Below are positions 41,320-53,697 of a stretch of 64,000 nt of DNA, piece after piece. The position numbers were made by a program, and so were the translations under genes. The stretch lies in NCBI GenBank assembly GCA_964649975.1, contig CAZYSM010000010.1:1964-65963 (forward strand), given 5' to 3'. This DNA is from an uncultured Bacteroidales bacterium. GTDB lineage: Bacteria; Bacteroidota; Bacteroidia; Bacteroidales; S143-33. Position 1 is the stretch's first letter. Every line of letters begins with the position of its first letter. The notes beneath the pieces are model-generated. The model saw only the letters and a list, made by a program, of their open reading frames with translations, had not been told where the DNA came from and ran no database searches.

Positions 41320-41438
41320 TTTTTGTTTTGTCACCCCAAAAGAACAAAATCCTTGCCCAAAGAACCGGAAAACACAACATACTGATTTACAAAACAATAA
41401 AAAGCAAAACTAGACTGTCAAAATGTCAGCAAAACAAT

Positions 41439-41468
41439 AAAAAAAGCGGGACTAACCGTCAGTCCCGC
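41439..41468 (-). terminator. Rho-independent terminator ending the 46405-41500 two-gene unit
   Basis: On the minus strand: GCGGGACT, a 7-nt loop, AGTCCCGC (a perfect 8-bp stem, 41446..41453 with 41461..41468), then T7. Confidence 0.75.
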
Positions 41469-41499
41469 TTTTCAGCAATCATATCAAGAACATTCTCCA

Positions 41500-42366
41500 T
41501 CACTTACAGAAAGAATCAAAGAAATCGGTGAAAATTCTTAAAAATCCGGTAGTTGCAAGGATATAAAAAATCAGGTTAAGGATGAATAAAATCCAGATCA
41601 CGGTTTTAGCGCCAGTAATTTTTTTACGGTTGTTCTCTACTTTTTCGTAAAGCTCTTCCTGAGCAATCAATACCTGATTGATTTTTGTGAGTATCTGGTC
41701 GGTCTGGTCAGCAGTAAAATCCTTAACGTTTTTCTCAGCCTCATTAACCCGTGTATTAAGAGATGATAGCTTATTATCAATATTATCCAGGCGCTTAGGG
41801 AAATTAACGCTCTCAATAACCTGTGTAAGCTGTGCGGTTTTCTCAGCTAATTCCAGATAACTTTCCAGTACTTTTTGTTCCTTTTCCAGATTTTTCTGAT
41901 GTTCTTGAGCAACACTATCCAGGGATTTTACGGACTTATTGGTATATTCCTCCAAAAGCTTACGCTGCTTATCCAGGGTGGTATTAACCTCGCTAACAAG
42001 CTTATCTACCAATTTTTTATTATCAGCCACAACAGTATCAACGACTTTTTTGACCAGATCCTCGCTCTGGGCAGAGAGCTCAGAAAATTTGGATAAAATT
42101 CCTTCTTCCTCTTTCAGTCTTTCCTGAAAGGCCATAAAAAGCTTGGTAAGATTCTCCTCAGTGAGCTTGTAAGTTTTGTTCATATAATCCGAGACCAGGC
42201 TCTGCAACTTTTTTAATACATCAGAATATTTTTCGGTAAGGTTCTGCCCTAATTCCACAACATCCTTGCTCAATTTACCAGCGTGCGCAATTTGTTCCGA
42301 AGCACTTTTGAGCTTTTTAAGCTCTTCCTGCAATTTAAGCAGCTCAATATTTATCTGCTCAATCAT
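41500..42366 (-). CDS. Tail-anchored coiled-coil protein, unknown function
   Basis: 288 aa. About 255 aa show heptad-like, Lys/Glu/Leu/Gln-rich helical sequence. A single C-terminal TM helix follows (TVIWILFILNLIFYILATTGFL). There is no signal peptide. The start lies 13 nt after the stop of the 1341-aa gene. Confidence 0.6.
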   Translation of the reverse strand: MIEQINIELLKLQEELKKLKSASEQIAHAGKLSKDVVELGQNLTEKYSDVLKKLQSLVSDYMNKTYKLTEENLTKLFMAFQERLKEEEGILSKFSELSAQSEDLVKKVVDTVVADNKKLVDKLVSEVNTTLDKQRKLLEEYTNKSVKSLDSVAQEHQKNLEKEQKVLESYLELAEKTAQLTQVIESVNFPKRLDNIDNKLSSLNTRVNEAEKNVKDFTADQTDQILTKINQVLIAQEELYEKVENNRKKITGAKTVIWILFILNLIFYILATTGFLRIFTDFFDSFCK

Positions 42367-42379
42367 AATTTCTTTAGTT

Positions 42380-45300
42380 TTAGGTTAAATCAATAAATTG
42401 TTTATTAAAATCCCTTAACCAGGATGTAAATATTTTCAGATGGAAAAGTTTTTCCACTTTGGCTTTAAGTTCAAAGTTATAATTTTCAAGTGTAAATAAC
42501 AATCCATCAATTCTCTCAATGAATTTTTCCACATCAGCATCATAGGTTTTCCTCCACAAATTCAAAGCCATAGCCATATCATCCAGCGCCTGAGAAATCT
42601 TAGCTTCATCATTCTCATTAATAATCAACCCAGCCCATCCACGCATTAATAGTGCTACGTAATCTCCAGGGTTCTGCTGCAACAAAATATCAGCGGTATT
42701 ATATAAATGTTTAAGATTGGATTTAAAAATTCCCACCTTCTGGATAAAATAGTCAATAATTTTAATCCAGTCCTGCTTAACTGCTTTTTTACGTTCTTCC
42801 AGGTCAAAAATATATTTAGCCCTGAAATAATTAGAAATAATGTATTTACACCGCTGCACATCCCCGTTTTGCATAAAGGTATCAATCATACGCGAAAGGT
42901 CAGATATAGCTTCATATCTACGAGGAATAATATAAGTGTATTCAAAAGAAATCCAGTAATTAAGCACTTTTTGCACAAATGTATCGCCTTTAAATCCAGG
43001 CACTTTCTGAAAAGTCTCCAATGCTTTTTCCTTGGAGACAAAAGTTAAAATACGTTTATAAATCCGGTGCAAATATTTATCATCGGAAAGCTTACGCAAT
43101 TTGATAACAAAATGACGGCTGCGGAAATCAATAATATAATCTTCGGCCAATCCTACAACCAGTAAATAATAGATCAAACGGTATGTATCGTCAAAAGTGC
43201 GCAAGCGCAAGAAAATCTCTTCTAATTTATCTTTGTTCTTACGGACAAATTTTTTATCAGTATACAGGAGGATAAAATCGTAAAAAGTCTCTAAATCGGG
43301 ATTTGCCAGTATCATACGGTTAAAATCCTCACGTGAAATTTTATCCTTACCTGCAAGCTTTACCAGATCGTCATAAATATCATTTGTAAAATCCACAATA
43401 ATACTGGCGGTTTCGTCTTCTTTCATATTAACCAGACGGGAAATAATGGTTTCGGAAGGCGTCTCCACTGTTTCATCCATAATCAGCAGAAAGTCCTGGG
43501 GTCTGGCAACAACCTGCCTTATTTCATAATCAATGAATGCAAGGATATTATCAGCAAGTTTTTTCTTGAGCGCACTGGCCTGATTATCAATAGTATTTTC
43601 TTTAAGATTAATTACACCAAGAATATCCTCCTGGTCATAGACATACAAAGAAGTAGGTGTTTGCTCAGGTTGAGGTTCAAGGGAGACCCATATTCCAAAA
43701 ATCTGATAAACACGTTTAATCAGAATATCTTTAACCGTATCTTTTGGCGAATTAGCCAGCTTGAGAATTTCCTCTACAAGCAAAAAATCTTTTTTTACAT
43801 TTCCGTGCATAGAGGAAAAAAAGCGGCTGGCAACATATTCCTCATAAGGAATTTCCCGTGTTTGTCTGATGGCAACCGGTTCATTACCGGAAATAATATA
43901 TTGTTTCTGGTCAAAATACACGCGGCGTGAGGAAAAAACAAAATTTATTCTTGCTGGCTGCATATCCCTGCCAACCCTCTGGAACAGATATAACAAATCG
44001 GTCATCCCCATAGGGAAGGAAACCACATTAAGATTGTGTATATCTTTTGCATCCAGACCAAAAACAAAATTTCTATTGGCAATAAGCAGATCATCCTCAC
44101 TATCAACAAACTGGCGAAAATGTTCATAAGCCTCCACACTATGACGTGTGTAGAGAGAAGCCGTACCAGAAACAGGCCTATCATTAAATAAAAACAAATC
44201 CTTCTTTACCTTATTAAATAAATTATCGTAATAAAAATCTGGCTTAAGAGTATATATAACAGACTTCTCATCCAGCAAATCATTATCTATCAATAAGTTA
44301 ATTTTATCCTGCTCAACTTTTTCCTCGTCTAATTTGTCCAATGGGACAACATTATCCTGATTATCCTTATATAAAACCACATCAATATTTTCCAGAGGAA
44401 AGACCTCAGAGAAAATATTGTCCTGGGAAATATCCAAAAACAGCTTAACATCTTCGGTGGCATCATAATCAATACCAGAGCTAAGAGCAAGAATTACAGC
44501 ATTTTCAGAACCTGGTAAAAACTTTTTCACATTGTTGCCCAGGCTGTAATAAGCATAATTAAAAGAGGAAGACCAGGAACTAAGGCTCTGTGCCTGGTCC
44601 ACAACAACTGTTGTAAAAAATCCTCCTTTACTTTCAAAAAGTTTTAGATCACTACGGAAATCATTAGAATGGAAAGCTTCGGCAGTGATAAAAACAAATA
44701 AAGCCGAGGCAGAAGCAAATAATTCCCGTCTATGGCGGCAATCATAAACATCATAATAATTCAGGCAAATATACGACACAGCATCAATGCGGAACTCCCG
44801 CAATTTATCCAGCTGATTTAACAGTGCAGGAACAAGCGGTTCCACGATAAGAGCGAATCCAGGACGGAATAAAGCAACTATCTGATAAAGAAGGGTTTTC
44901 TCAGCCACAAAAGAAAAATCTGCCATAGTATTATGCCCCGAGAGTGCCGAGGAAAGGACTTTCATCTGATAGGGATCCAGTATCTGGCGGCGGAAAATAT
45001 TCTTTATGAAATAAAAGAAACTTTCCCTTACTTTTTCCACACGTTCCAGATCGTCCTTGGCAATATTTTCGCCTGGCACAAAGGATTGATATTTCACAGG
45101 TTCAGCTGCGAGGAAAGTCCTATCAGCCTCAATATTACGAGAGGACCGCACTATGGCAAGATTTTCGGAAGCTGTATCAATCTTTTCAACATCCAGGCCT
45201 TTATAACGCAATAGAGAACTGTCAATGACCAGGTCATATTGTTTTGTTGGGTCAAATTCCTCAATCAAAAATTTCTCACCCTGGTAAAGGATATTCAAAG

Positions 45301-46405
45301 CAGCCTCTTCAAATTCCTGGTCATAATATATTTCCAGATGCACCTGAGGGAAATTGCGTCGCACCCCAGCCAGATGGAAAAGATTGTTGAATTTCATAGA
45401 AAGGTCCTGCACAGCCAAAAAAGCCCCAGGTACATCACGTTCAATAACAGCAATATTCCACTCCCCGGCGTTCAAATCCAATTTTCCGGCAAGGATATAT
45501 TGCAGGATAACACGCTGAATGCGCGCTACTTCAAAAGGTGTCAGAGCTATTTGCAATGCATCCATTCCGTAGGCATTGCCATAAACAGGTCGTTCGTAAT
45601 TTTTTCGGACTTCCTCAAAATACTGATTATAAGAAAAATCCACCAGTGGCGCATAATCAATCTTATTGGAATAAAAATCCGACTGTTTCAGATACAGAAT
45701 CCTGCCCCACCCTATATTTGACAGCATCCACGATCTGGAATCATAATCCATTATCTCAGGCCCTTCCACAAGTTTTTTTTCTATTTCAATAGCTAATCCG
45801 CGATACTGATTATCCTCAGCATAAGGCACTTCCAGGACAAAATCCATTGAAGTGTCAATAACCCGGCGTCCCAGAGCCTGATAATAATCTTTGAGTGAAT
45901 GTCTCTTCAAGATTGACAGAAAACTATGGTCAGCATCAATCAGTTGCAGTAAATAATCGCCCACATAGGAAGGGACAGTCTGAAACAAAAATTTCTTTTT
46001 CAAATCAGCTTCAGGGTCATCCTCAAAAGTATAAATCTTCTGAAGGTCATTGGTAGTTATACGCGGATCTATGATATGAAGTGCCCGGAAAATTTCCTCT
46101 TTCAGTTCGTCATTAACAAATGGATATGAGAAAACTCCCCTTTTGTCAACTTGCTTTTTTGTTTTGAAAAAAGTAGCAGAAATAATTTCTTCAATAAAAG
46201 TAGGAGCCAATGTAGGCAGCCCACGAGAAATCAAATTATGGATTACCACAGGGAAAGGGTCATTAGATATGGGGGACAAATCCTGTCCTGCGGCATCAAG
46301 ATCAAAATAAGACAAGTGTTTAATTAAAGCTTCCACGTATTCTCTCTGAGAACCAGCAAACAAAGAAGGTAAAGCCTCAAGAATATATCCTGCTTGCAAT
46401 TGCAT
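42380..46405 (-). CDS. Giant (1341 aa) RecQ-like SF2 pseudo-helicase protein, with an uncharacterised N-terminal region and a long helical C-terminal region
   Basis: Residues ~472-830 align motif by motif with the RecQ helicase core:
- LDPYQ...LSG.
- P-loop position FSFVAEKTLLYQIVAL.
- IVEPLVPALLNQ.
- Walker B VVVDQAQSLSSWSSSFNYAY.
- ALSSGI.
- LFQRVGRD.
The remainder matches no family I recognise. Confidence 0.75.
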   Translation of the reverse strand: MQLQAGYILEALPSLFAGSQREYVEALIKHLSYFDLDAAGQDLSPISNDPFPVVIHNLISRGLPTLAPTFIEEIISATFFKTKKQVDKRGVFSYPFVNDELKEEIFRALHIIDPRITTNDLQKIYTFEDDPEADLKKKFLFQTVPSYVGDYLLQLIDADHSFLSILKRHSLKDYYQALGRRVIDTSMDFVLEVPYAEDNQYRGLAIEIEKKLVEGPEIMDYDSRSWMLSNIGWGRILYLKQSDFYSNKIDYAPLVDFSYNQYFEEVRKNYERPVYGNAYGMDALQIALTPFEVARIQRVILQYILAGKLDLNAGEWNIAVIERDVPGAFLAVQDLSMKFNNLFHLAGVRRNFPQVHLEIYYDQEFEEAALNILYQGEKFLIEEFDPTKQYDLVIDSSLLRYKGLDVEKIDTASENLAIVRSSRNIEADRTFLAAEPVKYQSFVPGENIAKDDLERVEKVRESFFYFIKNIFRRQILDPYQMKVLSSALSGHNTMADFSFVAEKTLLYQIVALFRPGFALIVEPLVPALLNQLDKLREFRIDAVSYICLNYYDVYDCRHRRELFASASALFVFITAEAFHSNDFRSDLKLFESKGGFFTTVVVDQAQSLSSWSSSFNYAYYSLGNNVKKFLPGSENAVILALSSGIDYDATEDVKLFLDISQDNIFSEVFPLENIDVVLYKDNQDNVVPLDKLDEEKVEQDKINLLIDNDLLDEKSVIYTLKPDFYYDNLFNKVKKDLFLFNDRPVSGTASLYTRHSVEAYEHFRQFVDSEDDLLIANRNFVFGLDAKDIHNLNVVSFPMGMTDLLYLFQRVGRDMQPARINFVFSSRRVYFDQKQYIISGNEPVAIRQTREIPYEEYVASRFFSSMHGNVKKDFLLVEEILKLANSPKDTVKDILIKRVYQIFGIWVSLEPQPEQTPTSLYVYDQEDILGVINLKENTIDNQASALKKKLADNILAFIDYEIRQVVARPQDFLLIMDETVETPSETIISRLVNMKEDETASIIVDFTNDIYDDLVKLAGKDKISREDFNRMILANPDLETFYDFILLYTDKKFVRKNKDKLEEIFLRLRTFDDTYRLIYYLLVVGLAEDYIIDFRSRHFVIKLRKLSDDKYLHRIYKRILTFVSKEKALETFQKVPGFKGDTFVQKVLNYWISFEYTYIIPRRYEAISDLSRMIDTFMQNGDVQRCKYIISNYFRAKYIFDLEERKKAVKQDWIKIIDYFIQKVGIFKSNLKHLYNTADILLQQNPGDYVALLMRGWAGLIINENDEAKISQALDDMAMALNLWRKTYDADVEKFIERIDGLLFTLENYNFELKAKVEKLFHLKIFTSWLRDFNKQFIDLT

Positions 46406-46431
46406 ACAAAAACGCGTTTTGAAAATAAGTT

Positions 46432-46459
46432 CAAATTTAATACCACAAACGCCCTACAA
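46432..46459 (-). promoter_or_regulatory. Candidate promoter (TTG-N17-TAAATTTG) for the 1341-aa gene
   Basis: On the minus strand, TAAATTTG is 46439..46432 and TTG is 46459..46457. The -7 box ends 26 nt upstream of ATG 46405. Confidence 0.35.
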
Positions 46460-46521
46460 AAAAGGGCATTAACAAATTTATATAAACATTTTTGATTTCA
46501 AAAGTATTAATTTATAAAAGT

Positions 46522-47863: not shown

Positions 47864-48916
47864 TTATTGACAGCTTTCCAGGAAACTCTCAGCTTCTTTC
47901 ACGCCAAGTTTCAGGGCTTTTTTCCAGTCCTGGCACGCACCTTTAAAATCTTTCACCAGCTCACGAGCACTTCCGCGGTTGGCATAAGCATAACCGTAGT
48001 TAGGATCCAGATCAATAGCTTTGTTATATGCCTTAATAGCGTCATTATATTTTTCCAGTTTAAACAAAGCAGCTCCCAGATTGTTATAAGCCACGGCATA
48101 GTCAGGTTTTATTTCTATAGCCTTTTTGAAGTCTTTGACAGCGCCTTGATAATCACCTTTAAGGAATTTAGCACGTCCGCGGTTGTTCCAGGAAATATAG
48201 TAAGTAGAATCCAGACGGATGGCCTGGGAGTAATCCCTGATAGCTCCGTCGTAATCTTTCATAATGCGCTTAAGTGTTCCGCGGTTATCAAAGTAGAATG
48301 GCAGGTTTGGATTCAATGAAATAGCCTTGTCGTAGTCAGCCAAAGCCTGGTCGTATTTTTTCAACATCCGGCGGGTGCTACCACGGTCATTATAAGCATA
48401 ATCATAATCAGGTTTAATTTCAATAGCCTTAGTATAGCTCTGTTCTGCTCCTTCGTAGTCGCCAAGCTCAAACTGAGCCAGGCCCATATAATAATAAGCA
48501 TTAGCTTCCTTGTATCCTAATTCCACAGCTGTGCGCAGGTCTTTGAGGCCTTCCATATATTTTCCGTTACGCACATAAGCATAACCACGGCTGAAGTATG
48601 CTTTAGAAAGGGAAGGATCCAGCTTAATAGCTTTGGTAAAATCCTCCACTGCACCGTCATAATCTTTCATTTCCATTCTAACACTTCCGCGGTTGAAATA
48701 AGCTTTCGCAAAATTAGGTTTCAATTTGATGGCTTTTGTAAACTGGACAATAGCCGAATCATATTTATTCTGGGAATAAAGTTCAAGACCTTTATTATAA
48801 GCCAATTCAGCCTCTTGTCCTTCGGCAATGACAACAGTAGAATCTCCGGCAGGCTGCTGTGCATAAACGCTTAAAAACAATATTAAGCCCATTATTAAAG
48901 AAAAAAGTTTTTTCAT
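47864..48916 (-). CDS. Secreted tetratricopeptide-repeat protein
   Basis: Trimmed to ATG 48916 (MKKLFSLIMGLILFLSVYAQQ). About nine consecutive 34-aa TPR units follow (AYFNRG..., AYNDRG..., AIEIKPDYA...). Confidence 0.8.
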   Translation of the reverse strand: MKKLFSLIMGLILFLSVYAQQPAGDSTVVIAEGQEAELAYNKGLELYSQNKYDSAIVQFTKAIKLKPNFAKAYFNRGSVRMEMKDYDGAVEDFTKAIKLDPSLSKAYFSRGYAYVRNGKYMEGLKDLRTAVELGYKEANAYYYMGLAQFELGDYEGAEQSYTKAIEIKPDYDYAYNDRGSTRRMLKKYDQALADYDKAISLNPNLPFYFDNRGTLKRIMKDYDGAIRDYSQAIRLDSTYYISWNNRGRAKFLKGDYQGAVKDFKKAIEIKPDYAVAYNNLGAALFKLEKYNDAIKAYNKAIDLDPNYGYAYANRGSARELVKDFKGACQDWKKALKLGVKEAESFLESCQ

Positions 48917-49014
48917 TGTGCTGATGATTTTAATTTTATTCAAACTAAAAAATTCTATCTTTGTCAAAGATAATAGATTTATTTAAAACTTGCCAATTAT
49001 AAAATTTTACAAAA

Positions 49015-49470
49015 ATGATTCAAAGAATACAAAGCTTATATCTTTTAGTGGCCACGGCACTGCTGATAGCAGCCTCATTTATGCCATTTTTCACTCTCAA
49101 TAATGGTGCACTGGTAATAGATGGATTTTATCTTCATTCCAGTGCCGGGGAAAAAATTTTTTCCACTGTTCCGATGAACATAATTTTATGGCTTGGTGCT
49201 TTGCTCTCTTTTATAACCATTTTTCTTTTCAAAAACCGTATTCTGCAAATGCGCATTACCACCTATACGGTAATCATCCTGCTGGGCTTTTATTTATTGC
49301 TGATATATTACCGTTTTATGGCTCTGCCTAAAATTGAAAAGATTGTTTATTCCAAAATGGAAATAGCTTCGTTGTTCCCGGTTATAGGTGCTATTCTGGT
49401 ATATATGGCTAACAGAGCTATAAAGAAAGATGAGGAAAAAGTGCGTTCAATGGACAGGTTTAGAGATTAA
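49015..49470 (+). CDS. DUF4293-like small membrane protein
   Basis: The N-terminus MIQRIQSLYLLVA and the 4-TM layout match my recollection of DUF4293. Confidence 0.55.
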   Translation: MIQRIQSLYLLVATALLIAASFMPFFTLNNGALVIDGFYLHSSAGEKIFSTVPMNIILWLGALLSFITIFLFKNRILQMRITTYTVIILLGFYLLLIYYRFMALPKIEKIVYSKMEIASLFPVIGAILVYMANRAIKKDEEKVRSMDRFRD

Positions 49471-49605
49471 AAGGCCTACTATTTTGGCTTTCCGAAAAGC
49501 AGATTTATACAATAAATTAAGGCTAATTTTTACTCCGGAATTTTATATGACCATTAAGTAACTATATCATTGATTTTCAAAAAAATTATAAACCATCAAA
49601 AATCT

Positions 49606-49636
49606 CCGTCTGATAACAAACAGGCGGGAATTTTTT
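49606..49636 (+). terminator. Possible rho-independent terminator, 136 nt after the DUF4293 stop
   Basis: CCGTCTG, an 8-nt loop, CAGGCGG (7 bp including one G-U pair), then GAATTTTTT. Confidence 0.4.
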
Positions 49637-49654
49637 ACAAGAAAGGGTTAAACT

Positions 49655-50545
49655 TCATCCAGTATTTTGTCTGGCCTTAGATGGATTATTAATCAAAAAC
49701 ACGCTACCCAATATTGCAACAATCCCAAATAAAATAAAAAAAACAGATTTTAAGGAAAAACTACGTCCAAAGACCATATAGTAAAATAAAGGCGCAATCT
49801 GAACAGGCATCTGCTGTATAGGGGCCACCAAGGAAACATCAGCAAGATCATATGCCTGCTGCAACTCTTTAATTCCTATAATATTAAACCCAATCAATAA
49901 AATACAAGATAAAACAAAAAAAAGCCAGATGATAAAGTTATTGTCACCAGCAAAAATTAAAGGAAAAGTCACATAAAGTGGAAAAATCCAGAAATTGCTC
50001 AAAACGTATGGGAAACCAGCAGATAAAGCCCTGTAAATATGCTTATTATCCGTATTTTTCACAGACAAAAAATAAAAAAACGCCCATATTACCAGAGCTA
50101 ACAGATTAAATAAAATTATCTTTTTTATGATAAAACTATTAGTAATGTCAATGTTTCTGCAATCAACAATTAACTTACTCATAGTTAATGAAATAACCCC
50201 CATTGACAGGATAAAAATTCCTAAAATTTCCCTGAAGGAAATTTTTTCGTGCAAAATAGTTACCGACCCGATAATCAAGGCAATAAAACCACTTGTCATC
50301 AGTCCAGGCACCAATACTGGGCCCAATAGAAACTCAGCATACATATAAAATACAGTTGCCAATACTAAATACAGGAATAATCCCAATATCCAGGTTTTAT
50401 TACGGAATAAAAATCCGTATTTTTTTCCTTTTAATCCGGAAGGAATATTATTTACGGCTTTTTTCTGTAATACCTGGCCCAAAAAACTACTTACCCCAGC
50501 GCCCACAGCCATCAAAATCCCAAGGAAAAAACGGATTTTCATCAT
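49655..50545 (-). CDS. Polytopic membrane protein (DMT/EamA-like fold suspected)
   Basis: 296 aa with about 9-10 hydrophobic helices. The family assignment is a guess from topology only. Confidence 0.4.
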   Translation of the reverse strand: MMKIRFFLGILMAVGAGVSSFLGQVLQKKAVNNIPSGLKGKKYGFLFRNKTWILGLFLYLVLATVFYMYAEFLLGPVLVPGLMTSGFIALIIGSVTILHEKISFREILGIFILSMGVISLTMSKLIVDCRNIDITNSFIIKKIILFNLLALVIWAFFYFLSVKNTDNKHIYRALSAGFPYVLSNFWIFPLYVTFPLIFAGDNNFIIWLFFVLSCILLIGFNIIGIKELQQAYDLADVSLVAPIQQMPVQIAPLFYYMVFGRSFSLKSVFFILFGIVAILGSVFLINNPSKARQNTG

Positions 50546-50588
50546 TAAAAAGTCTTAACTCCAAGACAAGTTATAAAAAACTATCCAT

Positions 50589-51842
50589 TTACTCAAACCT
50601 GATAGCTTTGACCGGATCCACTTTTGTAGCAATCACAGCAGGAAAGACCATAAACAAAAGAGTAATAATCACAGTAGCTATATTCAAAGCCAGCAGATAC
50701 CAGATATTCAGATAAATAGGCACATAACTAACATAATAAGTTTCTGGGTTAAGCGGAATAATATGGAAAAACTGCTGCAGCAGAGCCAGGCCCAATCCAA
50801 TGGCATTGCCCCAAATCAGGCCCTTACGTAAAATAAACCAGGCATTGTAAACAAAAATCCTGCGTATGGATTTATCCTTAGCGCCCAGAGCTTTAAGCAC
50901 TCCTATAAAAGTCGTTTTTTCCAGAATGATGATAAGCAACCCGGTGGTCATATTAATCAGAGCAATGATAATCATAATGGACAAAATCACCACCACATTC
51001 ATATCCACCAGAGTAAGCCAATCAAAGATATCTGGGTATAATTCCTTGATATTCTGAACTTTTAATTTTGGTCTATTCTCAAAAAAGCCAAAAGCAATTT
51101 TTTTCTTCAACTCCTGGGTAATATCGTCAATATCCTTGAAGTTTTTAACAAAAACCTCATAACCGGATATTAAGAACTTACCTTTATCATTCCAGCCATT
51201 AAGCTTTTGAATTTCACGAATATCAGAGAGCACATATATTTTATCAAAATCCACAAGTCCGGTATTGTAAATACCTGCAATTTTGTAACTCCGCATACGT
51301 GGCGGATTCTGTATAAAAAATGCAAAAGCGTGATCCCCCAGCTTATAATCCAGTTTATCAGCTAATTCCTGCGAAATAATTATTTGCTTAGAACTGGGCA
51401 GGGTATCCAGATTAATAATTCTACCTTTTTGAATATATTGATCAAAAAATTTCCAGTTAAAATCTTTCCACACACCTTTGAAAACCACACCCTGGATATT
51501 GTCTTTGTGCTTTATCAAGCCGGCTTTCACAGCAAACACCTGCACATAAGCCACGCCCGGTGTAGTTATAATTTTTTCAATAACATTCGAATCCAGTTCA
51601 ATGGGTTGCAACTCATAGGATTCGTTAACAGTATGTTTCGTAATAATGATATGTCCGACAAAATCAGAGAGTTTGCGTTGTATCTCCCGCCTAAAACCTG
51701 TAACAATAGCTACAGACAATATCATCGTGGCAAGGCTCAAAGCCACTGCAACAGTGGTAATTCGGATAATTAGGAAGGATAAAGACTTATGCTTTTTATC
51801 CCGCGAGTTCAATCTATGTGCAACAAAAAACTCAAAATTCAT
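50589..51842 (-). CDS. ABC transporter permease, FtsX/LolC/LolE family
   Basis: One N-terminal TM helix, a MacB-like periplasmic domain, and a C-terminal FtsX 3-TM bundle (IGVLKALGA motif; the protein ends DPVKAIRFE). Confidence 0.8.
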   Translation of the reverse strand: MNFEFFVAHRLNSRDKKHKSLSFLIIRITTVAVALSLATMILSVAIVTGFRREIQRKLSDFVGHIIITKHTVNESYELQPIELDSNVIEKIITTPGVAYVQVFAVKAGLIKHKDNIQGVVFKGVWKDFNWKFFDQYIQKGRIINLDTLPSSKQIIISQELADKLDYKLGDHAFAFFIQNPPRMRSYKIAGIYNTGLVDFDKIYVLSDIREIQKLNGWNDKGKFLISGYEVFVKNFKDIDDITQELKKKIAFGFFENRPKLKVQNIKELYPDIFDWLTLVDMNVVVILSIMIIIALINMTTGLLIIILEKTTFIGVLKALGAKDKSIRRIFVYNAWFILRKGLIWGNAIGLGLALLQQFFHIIPLNPETYYVSYVPIYLNIWYLLALNIATVIITLLFMVFPAVIATKVDPVKAIRFE

Positions 51843-51954
51843 TGCAAAAACAGGTTTGTTCTGGCAAAATTATCATTTTTTACCGAAAACAAAACTTGGC
51901 TGTTAAAGGTATTTTAATATTTTTGTTAATAGCCAAATTCAAAAATCAAAGTGT

Positions 51955-53697
51955 ATGAAAAAAGTTTTGTTAAGCATTCTGCTAATAGGAATTTTAGGTC
52001 TGGCTCAAAAAGCCGTGGCCTGCACCAACTTTTTAATCACCAAAGGTGCCACAGCTGATGGTTCTACTATTGTGACGTATAACGCAGATTCCCATCTACT
52101 TTTCGGAGAGCTATATTTTTGGCCAGCAGCTGACTGGCCAGCAGGTTCAAAAGTAGATATATACGAATGGGACACCGGAAAATACCTTGGACAAATAGAT
52201 CAGGTGCCTCATACCTATCAGGTTGTTGGCAATATGAACGAAAACCAGGTTATTATCGGCGAAACAACATACGGAGGACGCGAAGACCTGCAACACCAGC
52301 CTGGCGCGGTTATAGACTATGGTAGTTTGATTTATATAACCCTACAACGTGCACGCACTGCCCGTGATGCTATCCGCATAATGGCTGATTTGATGGACAA
52401 ATACGGATATTATAGTGAAGGAGAAAGTTTCTCCATCGCCGACCCCAACGAGGTATGGATTATGGAGGTCATAGGCAAAGGCAAATATGAAAAAGGCGCT
52501 GTATGGGTAGCAGTGCGTATTCCGGATGGCTATGTTAGTGCACACGCCAATCAGGCACGTATTACCACTTTTGAATACCAGAAGGAAAATCGCTGGGACG
52601 ACCCTAATGCCACTGTATTCAATTCTCCTGACGTTATAAGCTTTGCCCGCAAGCTTGGATATAAAGGCAGTGACGAAGATTTCAGCTTTTCAGATTTTTA
52701 TGCTCCCGTAGATTTTGGAGGAGCGCGTTTCTGCGAAATGCGTGTATGGTCATTCTTCAAATCTATTAACAAAAATTTCCGACAGAATCAGCAATATTTT
52801 GAATATGCCAAAGGCAATCTCAAACACGACAAAAAGCTGGCTAATGGCCATAAAAATGTTAATGGTTTCTGCACCAACCGTATGCCTTTGTATATCAAAC
52901 CCGACCACAAACTCACTGTTCACGAGATAATGAACCTGATGCGTGACCATCTGGAAGGCACAGAACTGGATATGGCTATGGATATAGGAGCAGGTCCGTG
53001 GCATATGCCATACCGTCCACGTCCGCTAACCTGGAAATGTTGTGGCCATACGTATTTCAACGAACGCACCACAGCTACCCAGCAAACAGGATTCACATTC
53101 GTGGCGCAAGCCCGTAGCTGGTTACCCAACGAAATAGGCGGTTTGTTCTGGTTTGGTGTTGATGATGCTGCAAGCACTGTATATGTGCCTATTTATGTAG
53201 GAATCAAACATCCACCCGAGTCTTATGCAGTGGGCAACGGATCTATGGAAAAATGGTCGGACAACGCTGCTTTCTGGGTATTTAACCAGGTGTCCAATCT
53301 GGCTTATATGAGATATGATTCGATCCATCCCTACATTGAAAAGTATCAGCAGCAACTGGAAGAGAAATATATTGCATACACACCAGCCGTAGATCTTGCA
53401 GCAAACACGCTTTATGACCAGGATCCTGATCTGGCACGTGATTTCCTTACCGACTATTCGGTTTGTACTGCCGATAAAACTGTAGAATTCTGGAAAAACC
53501 TCTACCACTTCCTGTTTATGAAATTCAAGGATTTTAATATTATGAAGTCCAAAGGAATGAAAATTATTGATAACGGCAACGGAAAAGGCATTCCACTCTT
53601 CCCCTATCAGCCGGGGTATAGCAAAGAATATTACAAAGTTATTGTGGAAAAAACAGGAAAAAAATTCCTCTATCCTGAGGAAAAGAAAAAACATTAA
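51955..53697 (+). CDS. C69-family dipeptidase
   Basis: The signal peptide is followed directly by the Ntn nucleophile context VACTNFLITKGATADGS. The 580-aa length is typical of the family. Confidence 0.82.
   Translation: MKKVLLSILLIGILGLAQKAVACTNFLITKGATADGSTIVTYNADSHLLFGELYFWPAADWPAGSKVDIYEWDTGKYLGQIDQVPHTYQVVGNMNENQVIIGETTYGGREDLQHQPGAVIDYGSLIYITLQRARTARDAIRIMADLMDKYGYYSEGESFSIADPNEVWIMEVIGKGKYEKGAVWVAVRIPDGYVSAHANQARITTFEYQKENRWDDPNATVFNSPDVISFARKLGYKGSDEDFSFSDFYAPVDFGGARFCEMRVWSFFKSINKNFRQNQQYFEYAKGNLKHDKKLANGHKNVNGFCTNRMPLYIKPDHKLTVHEIMNLMRDHLEGTELDMAMDIGAGPWHMPYRPRPLTWKCCGHTYFNERTTATQQTGFTFVAQARSWLPNEIGGLFWFGVDDAASTVYVPIYVGIKHPPESYAVGNGSMEKWSDNAAFWVFNQVSNLAYMRYDSIHPYIEKYQQQLEEKYIAYTPAVDLAANTLYDQDPDLARDFLTDYSVCTADKTVEFWKNLYHFLFMKFKDFNIMKSKGMKIIDNGNGKGIPLFPYQPGYSKEYYKVIVEKTGKKFLYPEEKKKH

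Follow-up and report, generated by a model that had tools for sequence, protein, structure and literature searches.

A conserved two-gene unit pairing a motif-depleted RecQ-like protein with a tail-anchored coiled-coil protein in a Bacteroidales bacterium

In the 64,000-nucleotide stretch of an uncultured Bacteroidales genome analyzed here (the window; contig CAZYSM010000010.1 of assembly GCA_964649975.1), a two-gene unit was found with both open reading frames (ORFs) on the minus strand. ORF calling placed the large-subunit gene at 42380..46405 (ATG start, 1341 aa) and, after a gap of 13 nt, the partner gene at 41500..42366 (ATG start, 288 aa), exactly as a first-pass annotation of the sequence had claimed. 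By reading the sequence, we located two tandem putative Bacteroidota-type promoter elements on the minus strand 5' of the large gene (46432..46502): TTTG-N18-TAAATTTG at 46502..46473, and TTTG(46460-46457)-N17-TAAATTTG(46439-46432) at 46460..46432, the latter being the candidate with the N17 spacer that had been annotated before. The published Bacteroides -33/-7 consensus is the basis for reading such elements as promoters. In the window, 13 copies of the pattern TTTG-N17-21-TAnnTTTG were counted versus 3.2 expected, a number that none of 100 shuffles reached, and we infer that the tandem elements would drive the large gene. The unit is closed by a putative intrinsic terminator (41441..41473, minus strand), AGCGGGACT-loop-AGTCCCGCT followed by T7, with a G+C-rich stem of 9 bp that is extendable to 15 pairs. 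This hairpin, previously pointed out, is the strongest terminator-like site of the region (41473..41441) and lies in the intergenic stretch before clpB, which has its own copy of the promoter pattern at 41433..41405, 3' of the terminator. With an M16 peptidase gene and clpB as flanks, and with promoter and terminator both in place, the locus bears out the proposal of an autonomous unit between these two genes. Parts of the cassette had also looked more AT-rich than clpB; its G+C content of 0.35-0.41 is indeed below the 0.48 of clpB and uvrA, but the window overall spans 0.35-0.48, so the cassette is no compositional outlier.

The N-terminal region of the large protein (aa 1-465; 45011..46405, minus strand) was analyzed by AlphaFold modeling, motif alignment and invariant columns. 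Its model (pLDDT 92.3, pTM 0.93) begins with a small alpha/beta subdomain (aa 1-130) bearing SRGLPT and IIDPR motifs, followed at about aa 133-245 by a probable DUF559/Vsr-like PD-(D/E)xK nuclease fold that is decayed in the window copy. A helical linker then separates this part from a Rossmann-like subdomain (aa 315-421) with the invariant motifs IERDVP (E322, D324) and YDLVIDSS (D391, D395). The family invariants F34, G62, P64, P194, N269, R295, E322, D324 and D395 are all present in the window protein, and in phmmer searches its N-terminal domain matched family members with E down to 1e-164. No fold in PDB or BFVD matched the region at E<=0.001, and weak VRR-NUC fold hints appeared in two structure libraries.

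The identity of the nuclease-like part was suggested by relatives. The N-terminal segments of 18 of 51 relatives match PF04480 (DUF559) and PF18741 (REase_MTES_1575) at aa ~178-242; these matches are sub-threshold (best 1.8e-7, mostly just under the gathering cut-offs), and motif inspection was added. Intact members carry the canonical vDF..PY..IEIDGsqH..RD..GW..RI motif in the alignment, and one fragment is annotated by JGI as 'very-short-patch-repair endonuclease'. Intact relatives thus appear to bear a DUF559/Vsr-type endonuclease signature that had not been recognized in this region. The window region itself matched no family at all at E<=1, PF04480 and PF18741 included. At its nuclease site D188, E207, R224 and W232/R234 are kept, and D209E, G210K and H213V are changed (IEIEKKLV versus ExDGxxH). 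The fold is probably retained, the model showing pLDDT >90 across the region, but it is doubtful that the site could still act as a catalyst.

Downstream of this region lies a RecQ-type superfamily 2 (SF2) helicase core (aa ~466-850; 43856..45010, minus strand), identified by profile matches and motif columns. The family profile matched the cores of RecQ1, RecQ and BLM at E ~5e-61 (positions 467-836), the match stopping at the second RecA lobe, about chain residue 346-400 of the RecQ structures. Alignment to relatives confirmed the inactivating-looking changes reported earlier: motif I reads FVAEKT in place of TGGGKS/T, motif II DQAQ in place of DEAH and motif III LSSG in place of TATA, and motif VI is partly kept (QRVGRD). 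Loss of canonical motifs is, however, no strict proof of lost nucleotide binding. The window protein matches NCBIfam recQ models at E 1e-19, yet scores just 64-70 bits, below the RecQ cut-offs (TIGR00614, 64.3 versus 219.8 bits; TIGR01389, 70.1 versus 640.2), and it matches the PADLOC DpdF model at E 7.5e-20. Intact relatives exceed the TIGR00614 cut-off (221-253 bits) and fall below the RecQ equivalog cut-off. Zn-binding, RQC winged-helix and HRDC domains gave no Pfam match in the window protein, nor did they appear in precomputed Pfam lists for 120 relatives.

The C-terminal domain (aa 843-1341; 42383..43879, minus strand) was modeled by AlphaFold with a pLDDT of 91.8. Its winged-helix-like alpha/beta units give way to a helical-repeat region, and the chain closes with a tail in which W1329, F1333 and N1334 are invariant columns. 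It matched no PDB fold at E<=0.001, with weak TPR-like matches only. Both terminal regions had been left unrecognized; this holds for the C-terminal one, but not wholly for the N-terminal one, given the endonuclease signature of its intact relatives.

The partner is a tail-anchored coiled-coil protein, as anticipated, whose single hydrophobic stretch near the C-terminus (about aa 256-274) is predicted to span the membrane. E, K, L and Q are abundant in the soluble part, and Pro makes up 0.4% of it. A heptad helix (aa 1-30) is conserved at the N-terminus, and a conserved central block closes with a DFPxRL-type motif (NFPKRL, aa 188-193), the spacers being variable. Partners across loci always have a single predicted C-terminal transmembrane segment with 0-20 residues past it. 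Their PADLOC matches, to ZorA tails (E 1e-3 to 1e-5), JetC and LmuB, reflect coiled-coil composition noise.

The large protein has 437 homologues. Its N-terminal domain, which is confined to this architecture, was found in 576 of 1.84 billion representative clusters, where it nearly always opens a protein of ~1300-1500 aa; large proteins of the family typically measure ~1300-1450 aa. The family occurs in Bacteroidota, Ignavibacteriota/Chlorobiota, Cloacimonadota, Rhodothermota, Gammaproteobacteria and Patescibacteria and on plasmids. Where the sequence 3' of the large gene leaves room (75 loci), a tail-anchored coiled-coil gene directly follows on the same strand in ~70 cases while the flanks vary, which answers the earlier question of whether the two genes stay adjacent across genomes. 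By clustering, partners were counted in 63 of 80 loci, plus two loci with an analogous partner and five on re-inspection. Overlaps of 4-29 nt between the two genes are common, and translation of the partner is usually coupled to that of the large gene. Neither the PADLOC system models, the Pfam and NCBIfam families and the PDB folds nor any paper that we found describes the pair as such, in keeping with the first-pass statement that no system of such composition had been described. On the sequence evidence, the cassette is a member of an unnamed, rare, phylogenetically wide two-gene family. Relatives with intact motifs do exist, but since the entire architecture and the partner recur in them, they are neither universal core genes nor plain RecQ paralogues.

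Compared with an 89%-identical relative, the large gene shows a dN/dS of 0.098 overall (N-terminal region 0.056, helicase 0.121, C-terminal domain 0.086), and the M16 peptidase gene 0.051. The partner is the most conserved component, with 97% identity and a dN/dS of 0.049. Both reading frames are full length in relatives at 89%, 55% and 43% identity, and helicase and nuclease motifs are lost stepwise along a gradient across the family tree. The order M16 peptidase, pair, clpB persists down to 55% identity, and at 43% identity the neighbors are holA, der and trmD. Vertical inheritance of the window copy in a housekeeping locus is indicated by this synteny.

When the five degenerate loci (the window, P0002, P0005, P0010 and P0021) were inspected individually, no defence gene was found within 10 kb. 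The intact loci inspected in this way, including two plasmids, all adjoin restriction-modification, defence or toxin genes. Intact pairs include WP_013060229.1 with WP_043551465.1 of Salinibacter pSR56 and WP_013769079.1 with WP_013769080.1 of Haliscomenobacter. Neighbors of the intact loci include GmrSD and HsdR; Cas_APE2256, AAA_15/21, DUF3800 and transposases; MazG, DUF4276 with AAA_21, and BrnT, a set that differs between strains; and HEPN_RiboL-PSP and HigBA-like genes. Type I restriction-modification, GIY-YIG and PD-(D/E)XK genes surround the pSR56 plasmid locus, and a helicase and DUF1998 the pHALHY02 plasmid locus. Among 275 neighbors scanned, 156 PADLOC model families were matched in the intact set versus 38 in the degenerate set. 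A Pfam survey of de-duplicated neighbors returned mostly housekeeping families for intact members too, with few methylase matches, and hence gave no statistical defence-island enrichment for them.

The closest helicase core among known systems is that of DpdF from the Dpd 7-deazaguanine restriction-modification system (intact members E ~1e-82, window 7.5e-20). For the DpdF subtype PDLC02868, the likeness runs upstream into the nuclease and linker: matches of E 1e-8 to 7e-3 were obtained for all nine intact N-terminal segments, and P0076 aligns collinearly over residues 213-687. The window N-terminal region did not match PDLC02868, nor did the window protein match the NCBIfam DpdF model at E<=0.1. 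Moreover, the large proteins are ~300 aa longer than DpdF, and the tail-anchored partner is foreign to Dpd. No published mechanism for DpdF was found in the literature. PsyrT/RqlH of PsyrTA is also similar in having a RecQ-like core within a two-gene module of defence/toxin-antitoxin type (intact members E 1e-54 to 1e-67; matches to the DpdF and PsyrT models taken together at E 1e-63 to 1e-85). The PsyrT model (~690 positions) matches the helicase core only, leaving the N-terminal region without a counterpart, and the PsyrA partner is a soluble protein rather than a tail-anchored rod. Canonical RecQ proteins (E. coli RecQ, human RECQ1/BLM) share the two RecA-like lobes and the motif order, but the family differs in having extra N-terminal (470 aa) and C-terminal (500 aa) regions, and the window copy lacks the ATPase motifs.

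Hhe follows the same logic, one polypeptide uniting a helicase with an endonuclease of Vsr/DUF559 type (MTES_1575-like). It was reportedly described by Gao and colleagues in 2020 as a single-gene system of a helicase plus a Vsr-type endonuclease. Its helicase is of SF1 type, with the nuclease at the C-terminus. In contrast, the large protein has an N-terminal nuclease followed by a RecQ-type SF2 core, and Hhe has no membrane partner. Hhe was shown by experiment to be anti-phage in a manner dependent on its nuclease site (bioRxiv 10.1101/2022.06.16.496414). The pair matched neither the Hhe nor the PDC models of PADLOC. Zorya comprises membrane-anchored ZorAB with a long coiled-coil tail, ZorC and the helicase-nuclease ZorD (PMC11946911). 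It resembles the pair in that a coiled coil fixed in the membrane is joined by a soluble helicase/nuclease effector, which targets invading DNA close to the membrane. Different from the single-pass tail anchor of the partner, however, ZorAB is a MotAB-like ion-driven motor, and ZorD is of Snf2 type. In PADLOC-DB 2.0, both proteins never matched one and the same system, the large protein matching only the helicase cores of DpdF and PsyrT, and the partner giving noise.

Based on these data, we lean, with modest confidence, towards the window pair having descended from a membrane-tethered nuclease-helicase module, not described before and probably defensive, and having become catalytically inactivated and vertically fixed; the defensive role is suggested by the architecture and a handful of neighborhoods. 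In the intact form, the rod would insert its C-terminal helix into the cytoplasmic membrane, and its heptad helix and DFPxRL block would hold the large subunit at the inner face; a physical interaction of the two proteins is suggested by their synteny, gene overlap and conservation. There, the ATP-driven helicase and the nuclease may process DNA in a restriction-like action on incoming or replicating foreign DNA, which would fit the finding of family members on plasmids and in the vicinity of genes for restriction-modification, defence and toxins. In the window lineage, the Walker A loop, DEAH box, motif III and nuclease ExDGxxH have decayed, with both genes remaining full length under purifying selection. 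ATP hydrolysis and DNA cutting via the ancestral sites would be lost, and the pair may survive as a membrane-tethered, nucleic-acid-binding scaffold or sensor, any leftover activity presumably sitting in the invariant Rossmann-like IERD/YDLxID subdomain. At present, the pair most likely binds DNA at the membrane without enzymatic action, and it is doubtful that the window copy still performs a defence action. The hedged first-pass reading of a defence-like pair or a DNA-to-membrane tether is consistent with all these findings.

Two other functional readings, both of which we hold to be unlikely, assign a different present role to the pair. The window pair might still be actively anti-phage, the motif-dead helicase sensing foreign nucleic acid and the partner acting as effector, e.g. 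by oligomerizing and compromising the membrane in abortive infection. Membrane-anchored coiled-coil components are indeed known from Zorya (PMC11946911), relatives of the pair sit in defence contexts, and the partner, with its 97% identity and low dN/dS, is kept in nearly all degenerate lineages. However, its single-pass anchor with so few residues past the membrane offers no obvious pore-forming feature, and the individually inspected degenerate loci are devoid of nearby defence genes. Defence genes turn over quickly, and a locus fixed among housekeeping genes and syntenic to 55% identity would be atypical for them. This vertical inheritance and stable core-genome position, together with strong purifying selection despite the loss of both signatures and with the holA, der and trmD neighborhood, would suit exaptation to a putative non-defence housekeeping role, e.g. 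attaching chromosomal or other DNA or RNA to the cytoplasmic membrane, or serving as the scaffold of a complex close to it. On the other hand, no conserved functional partner genes lie nearby, and the rarity and patchiness of the family argue against a general housekeeping function.

A divergent RecQ paralogue for DNA repair or recombination is very improbable: the core is RecQ-like and intact relatives clear the TIGR00614 cut-off, but the window protein, with motifs I, II and III gone, stays at 64 bits against 219.8, no RQC, Zn-binding or HRDC domain was detected in any member, the RecQ match ends with the second RecA lobe, and the 470-aa family-specific N-terminal region and the membrane partner are foreign to RecQ. 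Loss of the catalytic motifs could also point to a decaying pseudogene pair, and the best PADLOC matches to DpdF, with PDLC02868 extending into the nuclease and linker of intact members, to a detached Dpd component. Full-length frames at all three identity levels and a dN/dS of about 0.1 speak against decay, and the DpdF equivalog scores of intact relatives (125-165 bits) lie far below the 550-bit cut-off. In addition, no other dpd gene (dpdA, dpdB, dpdC and so on) was annotated among the neighbors of any inspected locus, and no Dpd family was among the best 25 of the 156 and the best 25 of the 38 PADLOC families matched by neighbors, leaving this last reading scarcely credible.

If the intact family is defensive, the favored reading of an inactivated nuclease-helicase module would add a two-gene system of wide occurrence that keeps a RecQ/DpdF-type helicase-nuclease at the membrane by means of a simple tail-anchored rod, a minimal arrangement that could help to study the placing of defence enzymes at the entry sites of foreign DNA. 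The family may also inform on DpdF, and it holds two confidently predicted folds, N-terminal and C-terminal, without relatives among solved structures. A bolder version, which we regard as conceivable rather than probable, is that the module was domesticated in this Bacteroidales lineage, its new, maintained function residing on the fold-orphan Rossmann-like subdomain, perhaps a new enzymatic or ligand-sensing module at the heart of the family, and that the intact family represents a new class of membrane-anchored defence. The window lineage offers a natural experiment, in which the signatures were lost stepwise while purifying selection was kept at a fixed core-genome site. This combination of decay and selection would either show where in the machine the essential activity resides or document the exaptation of an immune module to a cellular role.

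The two ORFs named by the first-pass annotation are present on the minus strand of the window, a large ORF at 46405..42380 (1341 aa) and a partner ORF at 42366..41500 (288 aa), with 13 nt between them. The promoter proposed for them was recovered 5' of the large gene as a promoter-like sequence pattern, TTTG-N17-TAAATTTG, at 46460..46432, and a second promoter-like pattern of the same type was found at 46502..46473. The proposed hairpin and T7 terminator was likewise located 3' of the pair, at 41473..41441 (AGCGGGACT / AGTCCCGCT followed by T7), and this intrinsic-terminator-like site ranks strongest in the region. The window contains 13 copies of the Bacteroidota-type pattern TTTG-N17-21-TAnnTTTG where 3.2 would be expected, 13 being attained in 0 of 100 shuffles, and several mapped sites lie directly 5' of ORF starts, including that of clpB (41433..41405, right after the terminator). 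Judged from its own promoter-like and terminator-like signals, the pair looks like a transcriptionally autonomous unit.

Upstream of the pair lie genes for an M16 peptidase and a TPR protein, and downstream clpB and uvrA. The cassette is more AT-rich than clpB, as had been noted by eye (GC 0.35-0.41 versus 0.48 for clpB/uvrA), but it is not anomalous, since the window itself ranges from 0.35 to 0.48. Also as noted earlier, no integrase or transposase was found among the inspected flanking genes (uvrA, clpB, M16 peptidase, TPR protein, EamA-like and FtsX-type), and the window contains no tRNA genes or Rfam elements; a horizontal-transfer signature in the window was thus rejected. The lowest GC of the neighbourhood (0.32-0.36, below that of the cassette) was found at 48500..52000, which carries a DUF4293-like ORF, an EamA-like membrane protein and an FtsX/MacB-type permease. 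Directly 3' of the cassette terminator, clpB has two minus-strand promoter-like elements (41394..41433), TTTG-N17-TAGTTTTG at 41433..41405 and TTGACA-N16-TATTGT at 41421..41394. At 887 aa (from 41380), the listed clpB ORF exceeds by 25 aa the 862-aa product annotated in relatives, which puts the probable true start ~75 nt further downstream.

Neither window protein could be assigned to a family directly with Pfam, NCBIfam and PADLOC, which gave coiled-coil noise only for the partner and sub-threshold RecQ/DEAD/DpdF matches to the centre of the large protein only: Pfam DEAD at E 0.003, under the gathering score; NCBIfam recQ and recQ_fam at 70 and 64 bits versus cut-offs of 640 and 220; and PADLOC DpdF at E 7.5e-20. 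A family profile matched the two RecA lobes of RecQ1, RecQ, BLM and WRN (E ~5e-61) over positions 467-836 only, and neither an RQC nor a Zn-binding or HRDC module turned up in the large protein. Alignment to relatives bore out the inactivating-looking motif changes described earlier: motif I (FVAEKT versus TGGGKS/T), motif II (DQAQ versus DEAH) and motif III (LSSG versus TATA) are degenerate, and motif VI (QRVGRD) is partly retained.

The window large protein has 437 detectable homologues, nearly all of 1310-1430 aa. A scan with one genome per species found 126 relatives, most of them in Bacteroidales and other Bacteroidota; the other hosts are Ignavibacteriota/Chlorobiota, Cloacimonadota, Calditrichota, Synergistota, Competibacteraceae, a Patescibacteria genome and a Clostridium MAG. 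Carriage by phages was rejected, with 0 matches in 50,697 phage genomes and only 2 among 2.9 million IMG/VR contigs. One sub-group bears an extra N-terminal extension of 170-300 aa (1590-1785 aa in total) and a more divergent partner that forms a separate BLAST cluster; it comprises loci L071 (Bacteroidales), L075 (Paraprevotella), L079 (Parabacteroides faecis) and L095 (IMG/VR) and proteins P0165, P0212, P0237, P0253 and P0272.

The N-terminal region is the best conserved part of the large protein, where F34, G62, P64, P194, N269, R295, E322, D324 and D395 vary little or not at all between phyla. With its first 470 aa as the query, an exhaustive phmmer search retrieved 576 representative clusters among 1.84 billion, in almost all of which the domain sits at the very N-terminus of 1300-1500-aa proteins, indicating that it is specific to the large-protein architecture. 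When 51 N-terminal segments were scanned singly, 18 matched PF04480 (DUF559; best E 1.8e-7), 18 matched PF18741 (REase_MTES_1575) and 4 matched DUF2726, the DUF559/REase matches mapping to aa ~178-242. There, intact members carry a classic DUF559/Vsr-like signature, vDF..PY..G.vIEIDGsqH...LD..RD...GW..iRI, which falls on an alpha-beta-beta-beta-alpha-beta stretch of the AlphaFold model, and JGI independently gave one family fragment the name 'very-short-patch-repair endonuclease'. The corresponding stretch in the window, MDFVLEVPY...GLAIEIEKKLVEG, keeps D188 and E207 and shows the changes D209E, G210K and H213V; no profile match is left there in the window protein. PDLC02868, a PADLOC DpdF-subtype model, matches the nuclease region in 9 of 9 intact members through its positions ~90-210 (E 1e-8 to 7e-3), and its alignment with the relative P0076 is collinear from residue 213 on into the helicase. 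What the family has in common with some DpdF-annotated proteins thus goes beyond the helicase core.

An N-terminal-only profile gave 0 matches to PDB sequences even at E<=10, and a search of a large database with this N-terminal profile yielded chiefly fragments from contig ends and revealed no new architecture. Shorter proteins of 587-625 aa recur (P0290, P0291, P0293 and P0294, the last with 49 member sequences), matching 71-76% of the N-terminal query and lacking a Pfam helicase match; since their contigs are 11-23 kb long, truncation at contig ends is less likely, and they could be N-domain-only variants or split genes.

AlphaFold modelled both terminal regions confidently (aa 1-470, pLDDT 92.3 and pTM 0.93; aa 843-1341, pLDDT 91.8). 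Despite this, no known fold could be assigned, as Foldseek at E<=0.001 returned no PDB match for either model and no BFVD match for the N-terminal one. The only recurrent hints for the N-terminal model were small VRR-NUC/'nuclease' proteins (probability 0.3-0.6, TM ~0.4 on target), along with low-probability Rossmann-fold enzymes (SIS-domain proteins, methyltransferases), and the C-terminal model gave weak TPR-like matches. For the Rossmann-like subdomain (aa 315-421), assignment to a Toprim or SAM-methyltransferase fold was dropped, the signs of it being no more than low-probability methyltransferase-like Foldseek matches and motif resemblances. The domain make-up of the large protein can be taken as shown.

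Of 80 loci, 63 have a homologue of the 288-aa protein as the next downstream gene in the same orientation and 2 more have an analogous protein, and re-inspection of 5 apparent exceptions revealed a tail-anchored ORF overlapping the stop of the large gene. The remaining partner-less loci are mostly at contig edges, and true absences are few (L002, L049, L069, L080 and perhaps L028). Beyond the partner, no neighbouring gene is shared by more than 16 of the 80 loci, by which a conserved third gene was rejected, and clpB and the M16 peptidase lie on either side of the pair only in close relatives of the window copy; the two genes thus stay adjacent while their flanks vary. The gap between them ranges from -41 to +212 nt, and the frequent overlaps of 4-29 nt suggest translational coupling. 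The two genes are a conserved pair, and are probably co-translated. At L028 (6459..7147, Synergistales), two short ORFs of 93 and 141 aa, with hydrophobic segments near the N-terminus or in the middle, follow the large gene in place of the tail-anchored partner, which may be a partner replacement.

The coiled coil with one C-terminal TM helix first described for the window partner holds across the partner family (140-377 aa, median 241): a single hydrophobic helix is followed by a median of 6 residues, with no second hydrophobic segment, and the soluble part is rich in E, K, Q and L, with 0.6% Pro and 2% Gly. Two stretches are conserved, an N-terminal heptad helix (I5, L9, L12, L16, L19, A22, I26 and A29) and, in the centre, a block with DFPxRL at its end, which reads NFPKRL in the window; spacers of variable length set these stretches apart from the TM helix.

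Motif states placed on a neighbour-joining tree (distance-based, midpoint-rooted) follow a gradient of decay. The first grade, 35 loci spread over many phyla, retains helicase motifs I, II and VI as well as the nuclease signature in intact form. In the second (L006, L008, L010, L014, L015 and L026), the helicase is intact and ExDD replaces ExDGxxH. The third, a rumen Bacteroidales clade, has GxGKT and DEAQ without motif VI or the nuclease signature, and in the fourth, the window's clade with L003/L012, L007, L040 and L043, Walker A is lost too. The SRGLPT motif and the Rossmann-like subdomain, with IERD[VI]P ending its first strand and YDLLIDxS, are essentially invariant across grades. The helicase and nuclease signatures have therefore decayed in the window's lineage.

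Degenerate members adjoin housekeeping genes: relatives at 89% and 55% identity retain the order FtsX - C69 - DUF4293 - TPR - M16 - pair - clpB, a 43% relative has the pair between SpoU/Lactamase_B and holA/der/trmD, and P0021 has a housekeeping setting as well. Every individually inspected intact member has defence-, toxin- or mobility-type neighbours, namely GmrSD (two copies), HsdR and DUF6088 with an HSP70/kinase-AAA cluster; Cas_APE2256, an AAA_15/21 ATPase, DUF3800 and transposases; MazG, DUF4276 with AAA_21, and BrnT, in a region differing among strains; a Gp49/HTH pair, and ParA with HEPN_RiboL-PSP; a type I R-M system, a GIY-YIG nuclease and a PD-(D/E)XK/helicase pair on Salinibacter ruber plasmid pSR56; and a helicase-related protein with a DUF1998 protein on Haliscomenobacter plasmid pHALHY02. 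The intact pairs on the two plasmids are WP_013060229.1 with WP_043551465.1 for pSR56 and WP_013769079.1 with WP_013769080.1 for pHALHY02, and Algoriphagus sp. AK58 has an intact pair too. When neighbours were de-duplicated, the PADLOC models that they matched at E<=1e-10 numbered 156 in the intact set, including R-M types I, II and III, a defence reverse transcriptase, DrmB and PDC-S02, versus 38, mostly generic, in the degenerate set. Pfam scans of 148 intact-set and 127 degenerate-set neighbours found housekeeping genes dominant in both sets, and a general defence-island enrichment was not upheld. Since most neighbours are ordinary and the contrast appears only in the PADLOC comparison and the individually inspected loci, the link of intact members with defence genes is suggestive, an association and not an enrichment statistic.

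Two further features were noted near intact members. Downstream of the pair in P0036 strains (L086, 16266..24137; L087, 16947..21203) lies a tandemly duplicated cassette of HTH_3, a 221-aa ORF, a 52-aa ORF, CarbopepD_reg_2, a thioredoxin-like gene and Peptidase_C39; the intervening stretch holds DUF4276+AAA_21 in one strain and BrnT in another, and the region resembles a hotspot that varies among strains and bears a bacteriocin-type processing module. A Pkinase+AAA protein occurs near two unrelated loci, ending a cluster with two HSP70-like proteins and several unannotated ORFs in L082 (15602..24221) and preceding a faint TerB-domain protein in L084 (1..960), and may belong to a separate, possibly uncharacterized conflict system.

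That the window copy is a pseudogene pair or a Dpd remnant is scarcely credible. The motif losses would fit a pseudogene, which is ruled out by low dN/dS against the 89%-identical relative (large gene 0.098, partner 0.049) and by full-length 1341-aa and 288-aa frames persisting at 55% and 43% identity. By part, the large gene gave 0.056 (N-terminal), 0.121 (helicase core) and 0.086 (C-terminal domain), and the neighbours gave 0.051 (M16 peptidase) and 0.006 (clpB), with dS of 0.25-0.83. The pair is under purifying selection, and it is vertically inherited. Despite the matches to DpdF models, identity with DpdF was rejected on an NCBIfam equivalog score of 125-165 bits versus a cut-off of 550 and on the lack of dpd neighbours, no other dpd gene being annotated at any inspected locus. 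A plain RecQ paralogue, to which the RecA-lobe matches would point and which would leave the regions outside 467-836 unaccounted for, is very improbable. Two other readings are each unlikely, though well ahead of these: a still-active non-catalytic sensor with a membrane effector, which the defence-type neighbours of intact members favour and the housekeeping setting of degenerate ones disfavours, and, with about the same small chance, a housekeeping tether exapted from the degenerate pair, which that setting favours and the rarity of the family disfavours.

Our preferred reading is that the partner would hold the large subunit at the cytoplasmic membrane. Docking is likely to involve the partner's DFPxRL block and conserved N-terminal helix, with the invariant C-terminal tail of the large protein (W1329, F1333, N1334) as a candidate counterpart. 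Intact members may work as ATP-driven helicase-nucleases on foreign DNA, by likeness to DpdF and PsyrT in the helicase core, to Hhe in the logic of helicase plus Vsr-type nuclease, and to Zorya in that a helicase-nuclease goes together with a membrane-anchored coiled coil (PMC11946911); Hhe has been validated as anti-phage (bioRxiv 10.1101/2022.06.16.496414). No described system, in line with the first-pass annotation, and no curated family or solved fold in Pfam, NCBIfam, PADLOC, PDB or BFVD matches the pair or its N- and C-terminal domains, and literature searches found no published description of the pair. As a type of system, a probably defensive helicase-nuclease is already familiar; new are the domain combination of the large protein, the tail-anchored partner and the step-by-step disappearance of catalytic signatures from a pair that selection retains. 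In the window copy, ATP hydrolysis and DNA cleavage at the ancestral sites would have been lost, and the pair may persist as a module for binding or scaffolding that is tethered to the membrane, or through a putative activity of the invariant Rossmann-like subdomain.
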